A stretch of 36,528 bases of DNA from Gammaproteobacteria bacterium. GTDB lineage: Bacteria; Pseudomonadota; Gammaproteobacteria; UBA9214. Under the pieces are notes generated by a model. It searched no databases and was not told the DNA's origin. It was given only the letters and a program-made list of their open reading frames with translations. Where the stretch lies: positions 1 through 36,528 of the forward strand of contig JAHKKL010000001.1 of assembly GCA_020027635.1 (NCBI GenBank). Reading direction: 5' to 3'. A program made the translations under genes and the position numbers. Shown here piece by piece: positions 8,681 through 18,755 of the stretch; position 1 is the stretch's first letter; each line of letters opens with the position of its first letter.

Positions 8681-8949
8681 GAACTGTTCTCTGCGCGTAC
8701 GATGTCTGGACGCTGCGCCGTGGTGATCGGATCGGCGCCGGTTGTCCGGTCGAGATCTGCGATGTTGCTGATGAGCGCCTGTGCGTGGCCGATGGTGTGC
8801 GCTCACCAAGGGCCATCATCGATCTACCGATGATTGTCGATGGCGACACCCGGTACATAGCATTGGCACACCTGCCGGATGGTCTGGAGATCACGGTGGA
8901 CGGACCGCCCAGCCTGATCGAAACCGGGCACGCCGGGATAGAGATATGA
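8677..8949 (+). CDS. hypothetical protein (90 aa)
   Basis: ATGA overlaps at both ends place it in a translationally coupled chain between terL and the portal gene. Confidence 0.5.
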   Translation: MRTVLCAYDVWTLRRGDRIGAGCPVEICDVADERLCVADGVRSPRAIIDLPMIVDGDTRYIALAHLPDGLEITVDGPPSLIETGHAGIEI

Positions 8950-10616
8950 AGATCCCGAGCGATCTCATCGAACGCTATGATCTGTACACGGATGTGATGC
9001 AGGCATGCGCCAGCTCGCGCGAGCCGCGCAAGGGCAACTACAAACGCCGATACAGCTATTTCGTCTATGGCGCGCAGCCGGAGGTGCTGGCAAGCCCGTT
9101 CAACAAGATAGGCCCGGCATTGGATGCCCTGACCTCGCTCATTTTCTCCGCCGAGACCACGCGCTTCAGCATCGAACTCGGAGTGGATGCAAAACCGGTG
9201 GACAAGCTGCGCACGATGTCGGTCAGCCGCCAGCTCTCCCGGCGCTGGAACGAGATGAAGGCGGGCGAGCTGGTCCGGCAGGCGGTGTTGTGGGCGCTTG
9301 CCTATGACTCGATGTTCCTGAAACTCCTCTGGCGCGGTGGGCGATATCAGGCCTTCCTGTGCGAGCCGCACACGATAGGGTTGTTCCGGGACGATGTGAC
9401 GGACATCGATGAGCAGGAGGCGATCTCGATGACCTACGGGATCACCATCAAGGAATTGACGCGCGAACTCGCCTCGCACCCGCGGCGCGCCGAGATCCTG
9501 AAGAATGTCAGTGCCAGTCAGCGCCAGGACTCTACCGCCGAGGCCGATGGGCTCTCGAAACTGGTGGTGGCGCAGATCAGATCGGACAATCCGACCAACC
9601 TGATCGGCAATCTCGCGAGCCCCTTCGTCGGCACACGGCTGGATCTGACCCCTACCGGACAGGAACAACTGGTGCCGATGACCGAGCTTTGGATCTGGGA
9701 CGATGACAAGGCCGATTATCGGGTAGTCACGCTTGCCAATGACATGACGGTCTATGATCGCTTCTCCGGCAATCACCCGGGCGAGCCGCCCGGCATGTGG
9801 ATGAAGGGAGAGCACCAGTTCATTCAGTTCTGTCCAGAGCCGAAGTACGACTATGCATGGGGATTCAGCCAGATTGACCGATTGATGGATCTGCAGGACT
9901 GGCGCACCCGGCGCATGCGCGAGATCTCCGACGTGCTCTCGCGCAATACCTATCCGCCGAAGATCTCCTTTGGCGTCCCCGGCATACAGGACGAAAAGGC
10001 CTATGCACTGGGTCTGGCCAAGTCCTATTTCGCGGTTGCCGATCCGATGGGCAAGATCGAGGAATGGAAGACCGATCTGCCACAGGATCTGTTCATCGAG
10101 ATCAGGGAGATCGATGCGATGTTCGACGAGGCCCTGGGACTGCCGAAGATCCTCCAGGGCGAGGGCACGCCCGGCGTGCGCTCTCGTGGCCACGCCGAGA
10201 CCCTCGGGCGCTATGCCAGCGGCCGCGCGCGCTCTCGCAGCCAGTATGTGGAAAGCGCGGTCGAGCGGCTGGTCAACCTGATGTTGCAAGGCATGCGCGT
10301 ACATGATGCGACCCACCTGCCAGCCGATGACGGGACGAAGTTCATCGTCGGCCAGTTCGACAAGGTGGCAGTGGCCAAGGTCGATGCGCATTCCTCGAGT
10401 CCGGTCTTCGTCGAGGAACTCGATCGGACCGCCAATGAGCTGTTCGAGGCCGGCGCCATCGATCGGCGCACGCTGCTGGAGCTGCGCCAGCCGCCGATGC
10501 TCGACATGCTGCTGGAGCGCCTGAAGGATATCGAGGAGAAGGAGGCGAAGAACGCCCAGATGCAGATGGAATTCGAGCTGAAAACCAAACAGGCCGCGGC
10601 CCAGAGGATACGATAA
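8946..10616 (+). CDS. portal protein (candidate)
   Basis: 556 aa starting at ATG 8946 (ATGA overlap). The size and the terminase-proximal position are typical of portals. No specific motif was verified by eye. Confidence 0.55.
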   Translation: MKIPSDLIERYDLYTDVMQACASSREPRKGNYKRRYSYFVYGAQPEVLASPFNKIGPALDALTSLIFSAETTRFSIELGVDAKPVDKLRTMSVSRQLSRRWNEMKAGELVRQAVLWALAYDSMFLKLLWRGGRYQAFLCEPHTIGLFRDDVTDIDEQEAISMTYGITIKELTRELASHPRRAEILKNVSASQRQDSTAEADGLSKLVVAQIRSDNPTNLIGNLASPFVGTRLDLTPTGQEQLVPMTELWIWDDDKADYRVVTLANDMTVYDRFSGNHPGEPPGMWMKGEHQFIQFCPEPKYDYAWGFSQIDRLMDLQDWRTRRMREISDVLSRNTYPPKISFGVPGIQDEKAYALGLAKSYFAVADPMGKIEEWKTDLPQDLFIEIREIDAMFDEALGLPKILQGEGTPGVRSRGHAETLGRYASGRARSRSQYVESAVERLVNLMLQGMRVHDATHLPADDGTKFIVGQFDKVAVAKVDAHSSSPVFVEELDRTANELFEAGAIDRRTLLELRQPPMLDMLLERLKDIEEKEAKNAQMQMEFELKTKQAAAQRIR

Positions 10617-11578
10617 TGCCACTTTCCAACCCGACCACGCCCATCACCAGCCCAGTCCCGAAAGGTGCCGGCCCAACTGCCGCCAATATCTGGTCCGGAC
10701 AGGCCGGCGCACCGCCATCCGGCCTGGGCGCGGCGGTCGCCGCACAATCACCTGCCGCGCAGCAGACTGGCGTCTCCTACAAACAATCGCCATTTGCCGA
10801 GCAATGGACCAAATATGATCCAACTCAGATCTGGGATCAATGGAGTACCGGCGACTGGAAGGTTCCGGGGCAGGGGATCGCAACCCTGATGAACAAAGGC
10901 AGCATGGACGTGCCGAGCGCGAACCAGGACACCTGGAAATGGTACCAAGGTGTCCTGCAAGCCGCTGCCAACCCGCAATCCGGCCGTGGATTCAGTGAAG
11001 GTGGACTTCAAGGAACGCCTGGCGCCGGTGTTAACCCCGGACACCAGAGCGAGATCACGGCACTGAAGTCGGTAGCCGATGCGCTGAAGGTGCCGGTGGA
11101 TGAATTGCCGATCGGCGGCGCCTATCTGGCCCGTGATCTCTATCTGCGCCAGTCCGAGGCCACCCGCCGCAAGCACGACAGCGGACCGATGGGGATGCTC
11201 GGGAACCTTCTCAGCATCGCGATGTTCGCGCTCAACCCCGGCCTGGGGGCCTTCGGCAAGCTCCTGGGCGGTCAGATCGTCGGCTCCGTACTGCCGAAGC
11301 TCGCGGGCGCGGTATTTGGCGGCAATGAAGGCTCAGGAACGCCCAAACCCGGCGCCGGCAAGGCCCCGGCCAATACCGCACAGACTGCGATGGCCGCGCT
11401 GACCCCGACCACGCGCACCAGCGCCCCCGGATTGCTCAAGGCCGGCGCGCAAAGCACCGGAAAATCGATCTCATCGACGCGCGCCAGTGGCACCGCACGC
11501 GCCGTCAACCTCGGCAATTCGTCCAGTGCCAGAACCGGGGCGGGAAAGAAGAAATACGAGGATATTTTCGGAAAGTAA
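10616..11578 (+). CDS. hypothetical virion-associated protein, low-complexity Pro/Ala/Gly-rich ends
   Basis: 320 aa. The ATG overlaps the portal stop (TAATG). Basic C-terminal tail (GAGKKKYEDIFGK). Confidence 0.55.
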   Translation: MPLSNPTTPITSPVPKGAGPTAANIWSGQAGAPPSGLGAAVAAQSPAAQQTGVSYKQSPFAEQWTKYDPTQIWDQWSTGDWKVPGQGIATLMNKGSMDVPSANQDTWKWYQGVLQAAANPQSGRGFSEGGLQGTPGAGVNPGHQSEITALKSVADALKVPVDELPIGGAYLARDLYLRQSEATRRKHDSGPMGMLGNLLSIAMFALNPGLGAFGKLLGGQIVGSVLPKLAGAVFGGNEGSGTPKPGAGKAPANTAQTAMAALTPTTRTSAPGLLKAGAQSTGKSISSTRASGTARAVNLGNSSSARTGAGKKKYEDIFGK

Positions 11579-11631
11579 GTGTCCATTCACGCCGTGATAG
11601 ACTGAAAACACGACCATCATCAGGTGATCTC

Positions 11632-12498
11632 ATGCGAAAACTCACTGCCCTGCTGCTTTTCCTGCTGAGCACCCCCGCCTGGGCGGCGTGGAACTGCCAG
11701 TCCTTCAACTCGCAGGTCTATTGCACCGGCACCGCCGCGCAATTCTCGACCAACACCCCCGGCGGTATCGCCACGCGCGCGACCGGCAACAGCTCCGATA
11801 CCCAGCACGCCTATACCTGGTCCGGGACGGCATGGATCGATCTGGGCGCGGCTGCTGGCGGCACGGTCTCCATCGACCAGACGGGGCCGGCGAATGATGT
11901 CAATCTCGTCACGCCTGCCGGCGATTCGGCGATGGATGATGTGAACGATGCTGTGAAGGTCAACGTAGTGACTGGCGGGGCCGGCGCATCTCCGGCGAGC
12001 CCCGCATATGTGACGCTGGGTGGCGGCATCGGCGTCACCGATACCTACATCGCGCGATTTGACGCCACGGGCGACATGCCGGCCAGCATCACCAGTTCGG
12101 CAAACGTCAGCGCCAGCAGGATCAAGTTCACCGGCTTTGCTGGCGCTGACCGAAGGGTTCAGGTGGCATGGCATTGCGCGACCACCGCCGGCCCCGACAC
12201 GCAGGCGACGCAGGCTTTCTTCGGGCCGGTAGCACAGGGCGCGATGGTCACCATCAATGCCGCCGATGATTCGACTGCCAACACCCGGCTGACCTATGTA
12301 GACATCACTGGCGGCGGCACGCCATCGACACCAGTATCGGATGTGTTCATGGTGTCGAACACGTCGCCCTTCATCGAGGTCGTGCTGAACACCGCCATCA
12401 CCCGCGTCGATGTGATTGGTGTACCTAACACCTTGAGCACCACGAACCTAGATACCATCATCCCGTGCTTCGTTGAGCTGAAGGGGCTGGCACCATGA
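11632..12498 (+). CDS. secreted protein of unknown function (Sec signal peptide)
   Basis: MRKLTALLLFLLSTPAWA|AW has the n-, h- and c-regions of a signal peptide with an AxA site. The mature part is Thr/Ala/Gly/Val-rich and looks beta-rich. Confidence 0.6.
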   Translation: MRKLTALLLFLLSTPAWAAWNCQSFNSQVYCTGTAAQFSTNTPGGIATRATGNSSDTQHAYTWSGTAWIDLGAAAGGTVSIDQTGPANDVNLVTPAGDSAMDDVNDAVKVNVVTGGAGASPASPAYVTLGGGIGVTDTYIARFDATGDMPASITSSANVSASRIKFTGFAGADRRVQVAWHCATTAGPDTQATQAFFGPVAQGAMVTINAADDSTANTRLTYVDITGGGTPSTPVSDVFMVSNTSPFIEVVLNTAITRVDVIGVPNTLSTTNLDTIIPCFVELKGLAP

Positions 12499-13313
12499 TG
12501 CGACGACTGCTCGCGCTAATTCTTCTCGCGCCGCTCGTTGCATTCGCGGCGAGTTACAGCGCTGTCCGACCGCCGCAGCTGTCCGCTGGCACGTCTCCGA
12601 GTCCGCCGGAGGTTGCGCTCACGGCTTATGTGGCCGACTCGACCGGCACATATCTGAGCAGAGCACAGCCAGTCGGCGTCGTAGATGGCTCGCAATTCAC
12701 GCTGTCGATGTGGTTCAACCAGACCACAGGAGGCAACTGCCTTCTGTTTGCCAGCACTGCGGGCAGCAACTCCGCGTATATTGATCTTTACAATTTTGTG
12801 TCAGGAGTAGCGACGCTTGAAACGAGGAACAATAGCGGAGGAGCGCAGAATCTTTCCTCCACATGGGCTACAGCGTCAGCAGGCGCGGTTCACCACATTG
12901 TGGTAAGCATTGATCTGACCAACACCGCGAAGCGTCATGTGTACGTGGATGGTGTCGCTCAGTCAGTGACATGGACTACCTATGACACTGCAAATCCTAA
13001 CATTGATTGGACCGTGAGTAGTTGGTTTGTGATGCACGGACCTTCAAATGGATTTGGAGACTGCGGCGGGCAGGTAGGGCAAGTGTGGTTCAACACGTCG
13101 TACATCGACCTGAGCGTACCAGCCAACCTTGCGAAGTTTTACAATGCAGGAAAGCCTGTTTATCTCGGAGCAGACGGCTCTCTGCCGACCGGGTCGCAGC
13201 CGCTCATATATCTGCCTGAATTCGGTGACCGCGCCGGTATCAATCGAGGCACTGGGGGCGACTACACGGCAACTGGAACGCTGCCAGCAGCCGGTCGGAT
13301 TCTCGGGCGATAA
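12495..13313 (+). CDS. secreted LamG/concanavalin-A-like lectin-fold protein
   Basis: Signal peptide MMRRLLALILLAPLVAFA|A. FTLSMWF...VHHIVVSIDLTNTAKRHVYVDGV...GQVGQVWFNTSYIDLS...LAKFY follows the Laminin_G_3 pattern. Confidence 0.6.
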   Translation: MMRRLLALILLAPLVAFAASYSAVRPPQLSAGTSPSPPEVALTAYVADSTGTYLSRAQPVGVVDGSQFTLSMWFNQTTGGNCLLFASTAGSNSAYIDLYNFVSGVATLETRNNSGGAQNLSSTWATASAGAVHHIVVSIDLTNTAKRHVYVDGVAQSVTWTTYDTANPNIDWTVSSWFVMHGPSNGFGDCGGQVGQVWFNTSYIDLSVPANLAKFYNAGKPVYLGADGSLPTGSQPLIYLPEFGDRAGINRGTGGDYTATGTLPAAGRILGR

Positions 13314-13315
13314 CG

Positions 13316-14980
13316 TTGCCGCGCTTTAATATCTCAGGCTCGCCGAGTTTTCTGCCTGCGGGCATGTCGCTGGTGGCGATTAAGGCGATTCAAAAGGGCA
13401 TTACCTCGACGTACACCGCGTCACCACCTGACGCCACGCAGAATGCGTACATGGCGGCGAATGGACTGACGGCATTCCGCTGCATCAACAACGAAAACGG
13501 ATGCACCTGCAACGCTGACGGCACCGGGTTTTCTAAGGCCGGGACGTTCTTGGATGACGACATCGCTCTCAACAAGGCCATCCCCGGCGTCACTCGCGTG
13601 TCGTCGGTTATCGGAGGCTTCCTGCCAACCGCGCTGAGAGTGACCGAGGCAGGTGGTGCGTGGACATCCGGGTTCTATCGTTGCGTGAGTGCCGCCGCAT
13701 GGAAAACCTACGTCAAGGGGATGCTCGACTTCATCTATCTGACGCAAGGACTAAACGACATCTGGTTCATTTTCGGCAACGAGTTTCACGCTATTGCCGA
13801 CCCGTGGATTGACGCCACCGCTGCGACGGACAGGGATGCAGGTGCTACCGGCACACCTGATGGCGGCGCGCAGCGGTACACAAACTATCTGACGTGGTAC
13901 GGCCACACCAGTGACGCTTTCAAGGAATGGAAAATCACCAACCCATCGAAGCTCATCAAGCTTGGCGGGCCGGCGATGGACTACCACCTCGAGACGTTGC
14001 CCCAGTTCTATACCGATTGTCAGTCGGCGACACACATTCTTGACTTCGTGGATGTTCACTTCAACGTGCCGCAGTCCTTCATCGCCGGAAAGAGCCTTGC
14101 TGACTTGATGGGCACGGTCATCAAAGACCTCCGAGCCGTGGCCCCGTCGATGCCGGTATGGATCACCGAGAACACATTCACGATTGGCGGCTCCAGCGGT
14201 ACTTTCGGAAACAACCCGATTACCACCGTTAGCGGCAGCAACATCATCACGCTCAACAAGACCGCGCACGGGCTGGTGGCGAACCAGAGGCTCGTTCTTT
14301 ACAACGCCATCGACACGAACGGTATCACTGCAGCCAACATCAATGGGCACCGCACAGTCCTAGATGTCACCGACGCGAACAACTATCGGGTAGTCGTGGG
14401 GGCGAACGCTACCTCCAACGGTACCGGTGGCGGCACGACCCCAATGAGCTACGCGCTCGACGACCAGTTCCTTGAATGGCACCCGACCTACATGGGCGCA
14501 GCGTATCTTGAGCGCGCATTGTTCGTGGCCCGCCAAGGGTACACAGAGGGGTATCACCTGCTGGGCTACGAGAACCGCGTCGCGTCGCAGGCGAACCCTG
14601 TGCGCGCATGGTTCTTCGTTGATTCATACAACAACTGGGAGCCGTTCCATACGTGGCTCGCGCATATGACGCTGCAGCAGGTCACCGGAACCTACGTGCA
14701 GGCCGGGGTGCTGCCAAAGACTGCCGGGGTCAACTCCGTCCCGATGGGAATAGTGGCCAACAACGGCGGCCTGTATAACGCCGCGATCTGGAACTTCTCG
14801 CACCAGCACAACCCGGACCCGCACAACAAGCCGTGGAGCGACGCGACGAAGGTGCAGGCCGTTCTTGCCGACGGATCGAGGAAGTCGATCAGCCGGTACA
14901 AGCTTAACGGCTCGTCGTCATGGATCATTGGTGAGCCGACATTGAACTACGGCGACTATTGTTACTGCGAGCTTGTATGA
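13316..14980 (+). CDS. clan GH-A-like glycoside hydrolase (polysaccharide depolymerase candidate)
   Basis: 554 aa. FIFGNEFH looks like the strand-4 Asn-Glu acid/base motif, and PVWITENTF looks like the strand-7 Glu nucleophile of (beta/alpha)8 clan A hydrolases. There is an inserted Gly/Thr/Asn-rich segment after the ITE motif. TTG start at 13316, or ATG at 13364. Confidence 0.5.
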   Translation: MPRFNISGSPSFLPAGMSLVAIKAIQKGITSTYTASPPDATQNAYMAANGLTAFRCINNENGCTCNADGTGFSKAGTFLDDDIALNKAIPGVTRVSSVIGGFLPTALRVTEAGGAWTSGFYRCVSAAAWKTYVKGMLDFIYLTQGLNDIWFIFGNEFHAIADPWIDATAATDRDAGATGTPDGGAQRYTNYLTWYGHTSDAFKEWKITNPSKLIKLGGPAMDYHLETLPQFYTDCQSATHILDFVDVHFNVPQSFIAGKSLADLMGTVIKDLRAVAPSMPVWITENTFTIGGSSGTFGNNPITTVSGSNIITLNKTAHGLVANQRLVLYNAIDTNGITAANINGHRTVLDVTDANNYRVVVGANATSNGTGGGTTPMSYALDDQFLEWHPTYMGAAYLERALFVARQGYTEGYHLLGYENRVASQANPVRAWFFVDSYNNWEPFHTWLAHMTLQQVTGTYVQAGVLPKTAGVNSVPMGIVANNGGLYNAAIWNFSHQHNPDPHNKPWSDATKVQAVLADGSRKSISRYKLNGSSSWIIGEPTLNYGDYCYCELV

Positions 14981-15082
14981 ACATCGCCAGAACCCTTGCC
15001 ACCCCCCTGCCGACAGGTGCTATTGCGATGACAGACGAATTCGACTTCGGCACTCTGGCCGACACTGAACGAGGCATGACAC

Positions 15083-15301
15083 ATGACGCTGACTGACGTT
15101 TGGGAAGTTCTGCAATACGCGGAGCGTACCGGCGCCGATACCGACGTTCCGGAAGGATCGCGCGTCGTGGCGCTGTCGGAGACGCTGGTTAATGAAATGC
15201 TGCAGGCGTTCATTGGTAGCGACGTCGATATGCCGGCGCGCCGCGTCCACGAACTGATGCGCCAGATGGCAGAACGCAGCCGCGCCGCTCCAACGAACTG
15301 A
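15083..15301 (+). CDS. hypothetical protein (72 aa)
   Basis: Acidic, helical-looking ORF with GAGG upstream. No motif. Confidence 0.45.
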   Translation: MTLTDVWEVLQYAERTGADTDVPEGSRVVALSETLVNEMLQAFIGSDVDMPARRVHELMRQMAERSRAAPTN

Positions 15302-15342
15302 CATTTCCGCACTTCATCCACCAAGGCGCTTTGGCGCATATT

Positions 15343-15363
15343 TGGGTAGTGTCTCAGTTTGAA
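15343..15363. repeat. left arm of perfect 21-bp inverted repeat (TGGGTAGTGTCTCAGTTTGAA)
   Basis: It is the exact reverse complement of 15973-15993. The match does not extend by even 1 nt on either side. Confidence 0.95.
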
Positions 15364-15680
15364 TGATAAATTCTGATCTCGAAAAATATGCCCCATCTGT
15401 TGACTTGGAGATTGATCCGGGCATTCGTCGCTTTGTTCTAATTCTACGCTCTGGCGGCGTCGATACCTTTGAGTCGTGCGAAGGCGGCGAAGGTCATCCG
15501 TTCAAAGAGCCGACCGTAAGATTCATGGGGAATACCGCCGAAGGGTATAGGGCCTTTTCAGTGGCGATAAACTACGGGCTGCCGGTCTGTAAGTTGCGGC
15601 GCTACTATCAGGTTATTGATTGTCAACTAGAAGGCCCGTGGTGGGAGATGACTTTTTCCATCACGGACAAACATCAGTAG
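15363..15680 (+). CDS. hypothetical protein (105 aa) inside the IR-bounded unit
   Basis: Globular-looking composition (…FESCEGGEGHPFKEPTVRF…GPWWEMTF…). The A of its ATG is the last base of the left IR arm. No Shine-Dalgarno sequence upstream. Confidence 0.5.
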   Translation: MINSDLEKYAPSVDLEIDPGIRRFVLILRSGGVDTFESCEGGEGHPFKEPTVRFMGNTAEGYRAFSVAINYGLPVCKLRRYYQVIDCQLEGPWWEMTFSITDKHQ

Positions 15681-15702
15681 TGTGAGTTGGCGCAAAAGAG
15701 CC

Positions 15703-15731
15703 CCCGTCTCGGGATTCCGGCCCGAGACGGG
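15703..15731. terminator. strong GC-rich hairpin, terminator-like (better on the minus strand)
   Basis: CCCGTCTCGGG-attccgg-CCCGAGACGGG forms an 11-bp stem. On the minus strand it is followed by GGCTCTTTTG. On the plus strand the T-run (GTTTTGG) begins only about 10 nt downstream. Confidence 0.45.
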
Positions 15732-15761
15732 TAAGTCAATGTTTTGGATTGCAACGCAGAA

Positions 15762-15887
15762 AGGCAGGTGATGCCTATGAGATCAGGGTCGCCCTGATAT
15801 TTGGGCGAGGGGCGGGGAAACCCGCCCCATCTAATCACATGGGCCAATTGTGTTTTTGGCCCTCGCAGTATAGCATACCTGTGAGGG
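15762..15887 (+). ncRNA. candidate structured RNA (consecutive hairpins incl. a GAAA tetraloop); class unknown
   Basis: Stems at 15762-15776 (5 bp), 15782-15798 (7 bp), 15809-15828 (8 bp GGGGCGGG/CCCGCCCC closed by GAAA), 15841-15862 (7 bp) and 15860-15887 (9 bp). The last stem has a G-U pair that is only valid on the plus strand. The last two stems share 15860-15862, so they are mutually exclusive. Confidence 0.3.
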
Positions 15888-15972
15888 AAAATACTTATGG
15901 TGTGTCGCGCGGTCTCTTTGGCTTCTTCATGCTTGTAGTATGGCATAGCCTGACCGCTCAAGCATCTGGCTT

Positions 15973-15993
15973 TTCAAACTGAGACACTACCCA
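15973..15993. repeat. right arm of perfect 21-bp inverted repeat (TTCAAACTGAGACACTACCCA)
   Basis: Exact reverse complement of 15343-15363. Confidence 0.95.
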
Positions 15994-16065
15994 GATGGCG
16001 ATTGCCTTGCATCCGCAGAATTCCCGTTCTATGCTGATCCCCATGCGAGTAAGTACGCACTAACC

Positions 16066-16464
16066 ATGTCCGTCCCGCCCGAGATCATGCAGATGATGTC
16101 GCAGGGTGGACAACCGCCGCCGGCCGCCCCCGCGCCGGGTGCCGGTCCACTGGGCTCGCCGATGTCCGGCCCGCAGCCGGCCGAGGGGGATCGGGCGCTG
16201 GCGCTGACCCAGTTGCAGACGGCCAAGAGCATGCTGGAGATCGCGCTGCCGAAGCTCGGGAGCGAGTCCCCGGAGGGGCAGGCGATCCTGGATTTCCTGA
16301 AGAAGATCGGGAAATCGGTCGGCCCACAGCGAGCAGAGTCCGAATTGGTGCCGGCCGAGATCGTGAATCTGTTGCAGAGCCTCCCGCAGGCCGGTGGACA
16401 GTCCCCGGAAGCGGCCAGCCTGCAGAACCAGTTGCCGCAAGGTCTACCAGGAGGTATGCAATGA
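16066..16464 (+). CDS. hypothetical Pro/Gln/Gly-rich protein (132 aa), head-morphogenesis region
   Basis: The ORF is ATGA-coupled to the next gene. It has low-complexity ends and a helical centre. Weak RBS. Confidence 0.5.
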   Translation: MSVPPEIMQMMSQGGQPPPAAPAPGAGPLGSPMSGPQPAEGDRALALTQLQTAKSMLEIALPKLGSESPEGQAILDFLKKIGKSVGPQRAESELVPAEIVNLLQSLPQAGGQSPEAASLQNQLPQGLPGGMQ

Positions 16465-17744: not shown

Positions 17745-18755
17745 ATGTCCAATCTCGCAACCGGCTATCTTCCCACAGGCGCAATCGGCGCCGAACTCTC
17801 GGCCATCACGCGCCGGGCGTTCATCCCGTCACTGATCGTGCAGGTCTACAATGCCAGCCCGAACATGGCAGCGCTGATCGCGAATGCGAACACCGCCACC
17901 GGCGGCATCAATTCGGTCACCGCGCCCGTGCAGGGCAATGCGATGACCACCCCGGCATGGTCTGACTACTCCGGCACATTCAACCAGCCGGCTGTGCAGA
18001 CCGGTATTCAGGACGCCGAGTTCAGCCTGAAGCTCTTGATCACCCCGATCCCCTATCTGGGCATGGAGGGGCTGGTGCAGGCTGATCATGCGGTCATCAA
18101 TCGCCTGTACGCGGTGATGAATGACGCTGGTAACTCGACCACGGACACGCTCTCGACTGCGCTGTTCACGAACGTCAGCAACACCCAGCAGATGACCGGG
18201 TTCCCGGCTGCCATCGATGACGGCACCAATCTGGTGACCTACGGCGGGATCAGTCGCACGACCTACAGCTGGTGGCAGTCACTGGTCTACGCCAACAGCC
18301 CGGCGGTGAACCCGACGCGGGCCTCGGTGATGCAGTGGATCACCGGCACGGTCAAGAAATGCGGCGAGCTGCCGACCTACGGCACGATGGGTCCGGGGAC
18401 CTGGCAGTTGCTGGCCAACGATTACGTTGGGCAGGAATCCTATGTGATCCAGCCCGGTCGCAGCTTCACCGATGACAATTCCGGTCCGCGCTCGGCCTTC
18501 CGGGCGCTGGAGGTTGCCGGCGTGCCGATCTACCTCGATCCCTACCAGACCGAGGGCGAGCTGCTGCTGATCAACAGCAACTACATCAACCTCTATATCC
18601 ACGAGATGGCGAGTTTCGCCTTTACCGGATTCGAGTCCACGCTGCCGAATTTCCAGCTCGGCTATGTCGGCGCGGTCGTGACCGTGCTCGAGCTGGTCAA
18701 CGTCAAGCCGAAGTCCTGCACGCGAGTGTCGGGCCTCAATTACCTGTCGATCTAA
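17745..18755 (+). CDS. major capsid protein (candidate)
   Basis: 336 aa with AGGAG 9 nt upstream. It follows the scaffold-like gene. Size and composition are typical of HK97-fold coat proteins. Family not verified. Confidence 0.65.
   Translation: MSNLATGYLPTGAIGAELSAITRRAFIPSLIVQVYNASPNMAALIANANTATGGINSVTAPVQGNAMTTPAWSDYSGTFNQPAVQTGIQDAEFSLKLLITPIPYLGMEGLVQADHAVINRLYAVMNDAGNSTTDTLSTALFTNVSNTQQMTGFPAAIDDGTNLVTYGGISRTTYSWWQSLVYANSPAVNPTRASVMQWITGTVKKCGELPTYGTMGPGTWQLLANDYVGQESYVIQPGRSFTDDNSGPRSAFRALEVAGVPIYLDPYQTEGELLLINSNYINLYIHEMASFAFTGFESTLPNFQLGYVGAVVTVLELVNVKPKSCTRVSGLNYLSI

Follow-up and report, generated by a model that had tools for sequence, protein, structure and literature searches.

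What accounts for a 651-bp unit, closed by two perfectly complementary arms, amongst the structural genes of a phage? The question is posed by a 36,528-nucleotide stretch of DNA (contig JAHKKL010000001.1 of an assembly assigned to Gammaproteobacteria, lineage UBA9214), referred to here in its entirety as the window. Within it, positions 15343-15363 (TGGGTAGTGTCTCAGTTTGAA) are the exact reverse complement of positions 15973-15993, a perfect pairing of 21 nt that lengthens to 24 nt if one mismatch is allowed. Between these arms lies an open reading frame (ORF) of 105 codons, termed ORF A. The probability that the unit is a non-autonomous, internal-deletion derivative of a transporter insertion sequence (IS) of the IS1 family, in other words a mobile insertion cassette (MIC), is put here at roughly 90%. 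Elements of this kind are already known; the member found in the window is new. It belongs to a dispersed repeat family, has the anatomy set out below, lacks a transposase and is foreign in base composition to the phage. Among the explanations offered in an initial annotation of this DNA was a non-autonomous insertion with cargo, resembling a miniature inverted-repeat transposable element (MITE). That proposal is borne out by more than 100 units with the same termini and by an IS1-type transposase in the full-length copies. MIC is nevertheless the more precise name, because the unit carries an intact gene.

The inverted repeat is not due to chance. The complementarity of the two arms was reproduced exactly, no 21-nt inverted-repeat match arose in dinucleotide-preserving shuffles (0/100), and the arms form the sole near-perfect long inverted repeat of the window, where no further copy of the 21-mer exists at up to three mismatches. 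A chance match, or a purely local structure, would be in keeping with the absence of a target duplication at this site and with nothing else; the shuffles, and the identical 19-mer found in other contigs, leave no room for it.

A dispersed family of IS1-type ends

The initial annotation had made the copy number of the arm sequence in other genomes a point to be checked, and the arm proves to be multi-copy. The outcome named there as refuting, a unit single-copy everywhere with unconserved arms, is clearly contradicted. The inner 19-mer of the arm, GGTAGTGTCTCAGTTTGAA, is present without change in more than 240 other contigs of environmental or viral origin, exact scans having returned at least 120 contigs in IMG/VR and at least 120 in metagenomes. 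In a looser form, GGTAGTG-NNN-CAGTTTG, a 17-20-nt end flanks ORF A, on one side or on both, in 37 fetched loci (individual loci are cited below by L numbers), and GGTAGTG-NNN-CAGTTTGAA(A) delimits units in dozens of unrelated contigs. A Woeseia contig has the same arm sequence (GGTAGTGTC...) on both sides of a whole block comprising ORF A and a transposase.

Across all loci, 101 distinct units bounded by inverted repeats (IRs) were collected, ranging from 69 bp to 4.3 kb. Target duplications of 8 bp are perfect in 68 of these and match at 7/8 in a further 7, whilst 23 units score 5/8 or less. Duplications beside paired ends include caattttt (L012), tgttcggc (L013), aacaatcg (L015), aaatcccc (L031), cacctgta (L044), ttcctccc (L056) and cttgaata (L082). 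Since the duplications of the relatives abut GG, the position of the ends is fixed at 15345 and 15991, and the true element is 647 bp long (15345-15991), with ends reading GGTAGTG...CACTACC. The base that precedes GGTAGTG differs between relatives with clean target duplications, so that the outer TG/CA pairing (15343-15344) is a coincidence of the flanks. The TG...CA termini described initially are thus replaced by family-defined GG...CC ends of the IS1 type (GGnnnTG).

This signature bears directly on a second explanation, in which a site-specific recombinase or invertase recognises the two arms and inverts or excises the DNA between them. Identical inverted sites about 0.6 kb apart would be a suitable geometry. 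However, there is no recombinase gene in or beside the unit, and elsewhere the same sequences act as transposon ends flanked by 8-bp duplications. An inversion system, which the initial annotation had entertained, is accordingly extremely improbable.

Short members of the family are common. Forty-six units are under 1 kb in length, and many of these hold no recognisable element gene and are MITE-like. Three short units in viral contigs carry ORF A as their only gene, each within a perfect 8-bp duplication: L098 (616 bp, aagaggtg), L147 (514 bp, gcaaatcc) and L163 (838 bp, tgaatttg). This IS1-type lineage is widespread in the environment, and copies of it are present in many predicted-viral contigs.

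Some further observations concern individual loci. ORF-less MITEs of 69-300 bp with 8-bp duplications are seen at L082 92-384 and 4153-4327, L300 716-869 and 2621-2774, and L363 8134-8222; the occurrence of several per contig points to bursts in which non-autonomous copies multiplied in certain soil and peat genomes. The Woeseia element contains a third, lone IS end (GGTAGTGTCTCAGTTTT, L007 6540-6556) about 400 bp from its right end, and the contig terminates exactly at that right end, as is expected of a multi-copy repeat that breaks assemblies.

Full-length relatives

Full-length copies measure 2.3-4.3 kb and encode, as one unbroken ORF, a transposase of about 280 aa that has a helix-turn-helix (HTH) at its N-terminus. 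The exact 19-mer ends are common to the window unit and to the transposase-bearing elements L170, L186 and L408. The transposase matches the Pfam model DDE_Tnp_IS1 at 29.6 and 32.5 bits, above the gathering cut-off of 24.1, and its top NCBIfam model is transpos_IS1 at 62-68 bits, which is under the cut-off of 100 for that model. The Prokaryotic Genome Annotation Pipeline assigns the name 'IS1 family transposase' to plasmid relatives (57-65% identity) in cultured Mesorhizobium, Acidiphilium and Hoeflea, whilst a fourth relative, in Methylocapsa, carries just the label 'helix-turn-helix domain-containing protein'. The one-ORF organisation fits the single-ORF branch of the IS1 family. Complete plasmid elements with these ends are found in Mesorhizobium loti 582 p_1 (L407 1796-5165, duplication cgctggtg) and in Acidiphilium multivorum JZ-6 (L408 2267-4900, duplication aagccgag). 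GGnnnTG ends and target duplications of 8-9 bp are the hallmarks of the IS1 family (PMC10425158 Table 8; PMC6807381), and both ends of the window unit begin GGTAGTG, in agreement with the former.

The parent elements share a layout in which one IR is followed by a gene termed R, variable passenger genes, the single-ORF IS1-type DDE transposase and the other IR. Some also have a small Cys-rich ORF (ORF C) and ORF A, in opposite orientation, between the transposase and the IR. ISs that carry passenger genes in this way are known as transporter ISs (PMC9330008). R is the second constant gene of the GGTAGTG-ended elements. It encodes a basic protein of 70-90 aa whose C-terminal end reads ...GGLKGGKARAxxLTPEQRxEIAKKAAxxRW, and it is located at the end opposite the 3' end of the transposase, behind a near-palindromic box, CTTGAGCGCTCAAG (L170, L186, L335). 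The copy in M. loti (L407 2075-2284) is annotated 'histone H1'; R may be a regulator encoded by the element.

Two observations relate to genes in or near such elements. The passengers at L012 7491-8932 (element coordinates 1509-2950) look, by eye, like a toxin-antitoxin system, with a HigB-like ORF followed by an Xre/peptidase-like one. At L408 4883-5721 a RES-domain/Xre antitoxin pair is situated immediately beyond the right end of the element (4900).

Structure of the cassette

The window unit can be read against this layout as IR, ORF A, a structured spacer of 163 nt, a stub of R and IR. Its features are as follows.

15337-15344: left flank and expected site of a target duplication, CATATTTG; it differs from the right flank at 15992-15999, CAGATGGC.
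15345-15363, plus strand: left terminal inverted repeat, GGTAGTGTCTCAGTTTGAA; the final A doubles as the A of the ORF A ATG.
15363-15680, plus strand: ORF A, the intact passenger gene, 105 aa, with motifs DPGIR, ETFESCEGGxGH and GPWWE.
15703-15731: G+C-rich hairpin of 11 bp directly after ORF A; terminator-like, clearest on the minus strand, with the tail GGCTCTTTTG.
15732-15894: strongly structured spacer of 163 nt with at least four further hairpins.
15895-15930, minus strand: stub of the R gene, ATG AAG AAG CCA AAG AGA CCG CGC GAC ACA CCA TAA, encoding MKKPKRPRDTP*.
15949-15966, minus strand: conserved subterminal box, GATGCTTGAGCGGTCAGG; a near-palindrome that reads CTTGAGCGCTCAAG in L335 and is found upstream of R in full-length elements.
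15973-15991, minus strand: right terminal inverted repeat, TTCAAACTGAGACACTACC on the plus strand; the element ends at 15991.

What the window copy has kept are both 19-20-bp IRs, an intact ORF A, the operator-like box and 10 codons of R. At the right end, the box beside R and the first codons of R are still present, in register with those of the full-length elements, and it is for this reason that the unit is regarded as a deletion derivative. The first 10 codons of the stub (15930-15901, MKKPKRPRDT) match the N-termini of R in L170 (MVKKPKRPRDTNQLAK) and L335 (MSKPKRPRDANQLAK / MSKPKRPRDANQ), at an equal distance from the end. Homology to R stops at about 15899, close to a stop codon at 15897-15895, and this point marks the junction of the internal deletion. 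Columns T28, C30-A34, C36, T39 and A41 of the subterminal box are invariant among 9 ends, and the box is a putative promoter or operator region of R. A six-frame profile search, using IS1-like and IS1595-like transposase models built here, confirmed that the unit contains no transposase, and no trace of a transposase, of ORF C or of further R sequence was found in the 3' half.

The unit is also compositionally foreign. Its G+C content is 0.51 compared with 0.61 for the window, and the G+C content at third codon positions (GC3) of ORF A is 0.55, below the values of 0.70-0.84 in neighbouring phage genes (an ORF at 12495-13313, with 0.59, is the exception). Neither the region nor the unit gave a BLASTN match among GenBank phages or PLSDB plasmids.

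The right half had been described as some 300 nt of hairpin-dense, non-coding DNA. The first part of this description holds, since the 292 nt from 15681 to 15972 fold better than shuffled sequences on both the plus (z = -6.2) and the minus strand (z = -5.4). The second does not hold entirely, in that a recognisable stub of a second gene is present. No conserved ORF was found in 15681-15972, and nothing credible emerged from Rfam over the region or the whole window, nor any tRNA. An ORF of 95 aa on the minus strand over the spacer has one match in 1.84 billion representatives, to a repetitive protein; this match was judged spurious and the ORF non-coding. A 24-nt match of one spacer hairpin to L261 was similarly set aside as probably a coincidental terminator.

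A further possibility is that the arms form a long-range RNA helix which closes the transcript and hides the start of ORF A, as the initial annotation suggested, and which would act as a translational switch. Thermodynamic prediction supports the helix itself: minimum free energy and centroid folds of a read-through RNA (15330-16005) contain a closing helix of more than 25 bp in which the AUG is buried. Fold-back inhibition of read-through transcripts is, moreover, known for other ISs, such as IS10 and IS50. Nevertheless, the same arms bound over 100 units whose lengths run from 69 bp to 4.3 kb; the majority of these lack ORF A, and the majority have target duplications. It is the sequence of the arms that is conserved, with no covariation in their pairing, and in full-length elements carrying ORF A the arms are 2.7-3.8 kb apart. 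A switch is therefore a very unlikely reason for the repeat, which follows from the transposon ends. Because the arm sequence bounds units of all sizes and contents, any effect on RNA is a side-effect of those ends, although a damping of ORF A expression in read-through transcripts, through the predicted pairing of the arms, would be a plausible one.

ORF A and ORF C

ORF A is a real gene. Its homologues number at least 350, with identities of about 55-76%, and come from metagenomic bacteria belonging to many phyla; the family is also present in 76 IMG/VR contigs, and the window protein holds all 22 of the residues that are invariant in an alignment of 25 sequences. As the initial annotation had noted, its ATG (15363) begins with the last base of the left arm, and the 18 nt in front of it hold no Shine-Dalgarno-like sequence; a sigma-70 scan found no promoter-like site. 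ORF A abuts the IR identically in the window unit, in the full-length element L012 and in L016 (GTTTGAATGA), the last being a partial copy cut by the end of its contig.

The family has no match in Pfam, PHROGs, NCBIfam, PADLOC or a PDB sequence profile search, and TBLASTN against the phage collection likewise gave none. An AlphaFold2 model of ORF A has a predicted local distance difference test score of 93 and the topology alpha-beta-beta-alpha-beta-beta. Foldseek comparison of this model with PDB and BFVD identified no significant relative outside its own family. The weak matches comprise LAGLIDADG-like proteins (E 0.09-0.3, template modelling score ~0.44, root-mean-square deviation 9-12 Å) and a PilO-like resemblance (E ~0.1).

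The association of ORF A with transposons is recurrent. In the first three bacterial contexts inspected, the homologue is convergent to a DDE transposase, and 40 of 80 genome loci have a transposase of the IS1-like or IS1595-like type no more than 3.5 kb from ORF A. ORF A is followed by ORF C, a convergent Cys-rich frame of about 50 aa, in 47 of the 80 genome loci and in 35 of 76 viral loci; the spacing is 0-90 nt except in two outliers (122 and 248 nt). ORF C has the motif ...YHxNxxCxEGNNIE...G.GRP.C..C (for example L001 4346-4489 and L013 6307-6492) and no match in Pfam, NCBIfam or PADLOC; it is absent from the window. Judged by this gene order, ORF A and ORF C look like a conserved tail-to-tail two-gene module.

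Might ORF A itself drive mobility, as a very small endonuclease or transposase, and so make the unit autonomous in the manner of the mycobacteriophage mobile elements (MPMEs)? It is the sole gene kept in the short units (the window unit, L098, L147 and L163), and its topology matches that of LAGLIDADG endonucleases, with which Foldseek also pairs it weakly (E ~0.1). These fold matches are, however, not significant and are accompanied by no Pfam or PDB sequence match. The paired elements located through the exact 19-mer all lack ORF A and yet mostly show clean duplications. Furthermore, IS1595/ISNwi1-like elements, whose ends (CGGnnTTATGTAGCAA) are quite unlike these, likewise carry ORF A (L014, L017, L023 and L032), whilst the majority of phage ORF A loci have no recognisable flanking repeats. 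An enzymatic role of this sort is thus highly improbable, and the small gene is better seen as a passenger of the IS1-derived cassette.

That ORF A recurs at the ends of ISs, and that cassettes carrying ORF A alone survive, suggests a function useful to mobile DNA. A more specific proposal, tentative and on balance doubtful, is that ORF A, with ORF C, constitutes an accessory module dedicated to mobile DNA, as opposed to cargo picked up at random. As such it could be a new small-protein fold which acts on DNA or against host defence. If true, this proposal would explain the position of ORF A at one end of both IS1-type and IS1595-type elements, its presence in many phages and the persistence there of ORF A-only cassettes.

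Comparison with known mobile elements

The window copy resembles the IS1 family in its ends, and its relatives do so in their 8-bp duplications and in a DDE transposase scoring above the Pfam DDE_Tnp_IS1 threshold. It differs in having neither transposase nor target duplication. The relatives for their part have one ORF of about 280 aa with an HTH in place of an insA/insB' pair with programmed -1 frameshifting, and through their passenger genes they reach 2.3-4.3 kb compared with 740-1180 bp for classical IS1 elements.

A MIC is defined as a transposase-less, IR-bounded unit with a non-transposase gene, presumed to be mobilised in trans by its cognate IS (PMC3913671). As in MIC231 of Bacillus cereus and the qnrD and qnrS2 mic elements, IS-type IRs bracket a non-transposase gene in the window unit and no transposase is present. 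The differences lie in its derivation, which is IS1-type as opposed to the IS231 (IS4-family) origin of MIC231, in its location in a phage genome, in its cargo, a conserved uncharacterised gene, and in its lack of the usual target duplication, which its sisters L098, L147 and L163 possess in perfect 8-bp form. With MITEs it shares a non-autonomous nature and the ends of an autonomous IS, and the family includes many ORF-less MITEs of 69-900 bp with duplications; the conserved, intact 105-aa gene means, however, that this unit is not non-coding. MPME1 and MPME2 of mycobacteriophages are likewise sub-kilobase, IR-bounded units of phage genomes without an ordinary target duplication (PMC3029335). 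They measure 439-440 bp, add 6 bp at one of their ends and, in contrast to the window unit with its clear IS1-type parent family, cannot be linked to any known parent IS; no sequence relationship between the two is expected.

IS derivatives have seldom been documented within phage structural operons, and the window unit indicates that a gene can be brought into a phage by an IS1-type lineage that is widespread in the environment. For annotation, a single element accounts for the repeat, the ORF and the 'non-coding' half. Its scientific value lies in the lead provided by ORF A, a confidently folded and strongly conserved family of about 100 aa without known relatives, which is met with at the ends of two IS families that are themselves related.

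Origin of the cassette and the missing target duplication

On the reading preferred here, an internal deletion removed the transposase and the remaining parent genes. The unit would have reached the phage by transposition during replication in a host with full-length copies, and it could move again only if a cognate transposase, supplied in trans, bound its intact ends. Since only 18 nt separate the element end from the ATG, no promoter or ribosome-binding site is present and ORF A is co-directional with the surrounding genes, the gene would be expressed, if at all, from read-through phage transcripts in the manner of a moron. More speculatively, the hairpin at 15703-15731 could stop transcripts arriving from the side of the R stub, although a sigma-70-like promoter was not detected.

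Several points weigh against this account. The absence of a target duplication, reported initially, was upheld: the flanks CATATTTG and CAGATGGC agree at 4/8 positions (chance ~0.11), and shifted or 9-bp duplications were rejected on inspection by eye. No empty site was recovered, and the flanking proteins are not in IMG/VR. No full-length master was found in which ORF A is closely similar or the 3' spacer is shared; the best ORF A match is 76% identical over 78% of the query, and near-full-length matches are at 70-73%. For the spacer at 15732-15894 no homologue was found, and it was not traced to a source within the parent element. Lastly, trans-mobilisation and the expression of ORF A are steps that we infer.

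The lack of a duplication is not peculiar to the window, as 23 of the 101 related units are likewise without one. Mutational decay is an unlikely cause because the arms are perfect, and some event after, or instead of, simple insertion is implied. Transposase-mediated adjacent deletion has been noted as a cause of missing duplications (PMC6807381). An adjacent deletion of the IS1 type and homologous recombination between two copies are the most probable candidates, and either would suit the position of the unit at the edge of the 5-kb block described below.

The surroundings of the unit are of interest in this respect. Taken as a whole, the window is the genome of a tailed phage. Its portal gene is at 8781-10616 and its major capsid protein gene at 17745-18755; its nearest relatives have SU10-type portal and adaptor domains and 60-63% capsid identity. 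The capsid protein cluster consists of a single contig, the next relatives being ~63% identical, and three relatives provided gene-order context only. The genes flanking the unit are all on the plus strand, and the unit sits in a 764-nt gap between an ORF of 72 aa (15083-15301) and the first gene of the capsid-assembly module (16066-16464). Between the portal and capsid-assembly genes is a block of about 5 kb (10616-15301) with five ORFs of 320, 288, 272, 554 and 72 aa. This block has no counterpart at that position in the three SU10-like relatives, in which the genes to its right are conserved, and the unit is exactly at its right edge. Such a location is consistent with a rearrangement junction, albeit not proof of one; more tentatively, the cassette may mark the recombination junction at which the 5-kb block was acquired between the portal and capsid genes. 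The ORF at 12495-13313, already mentioned for its GC3 of 0.59, has an N-terminal signal-like sequence.

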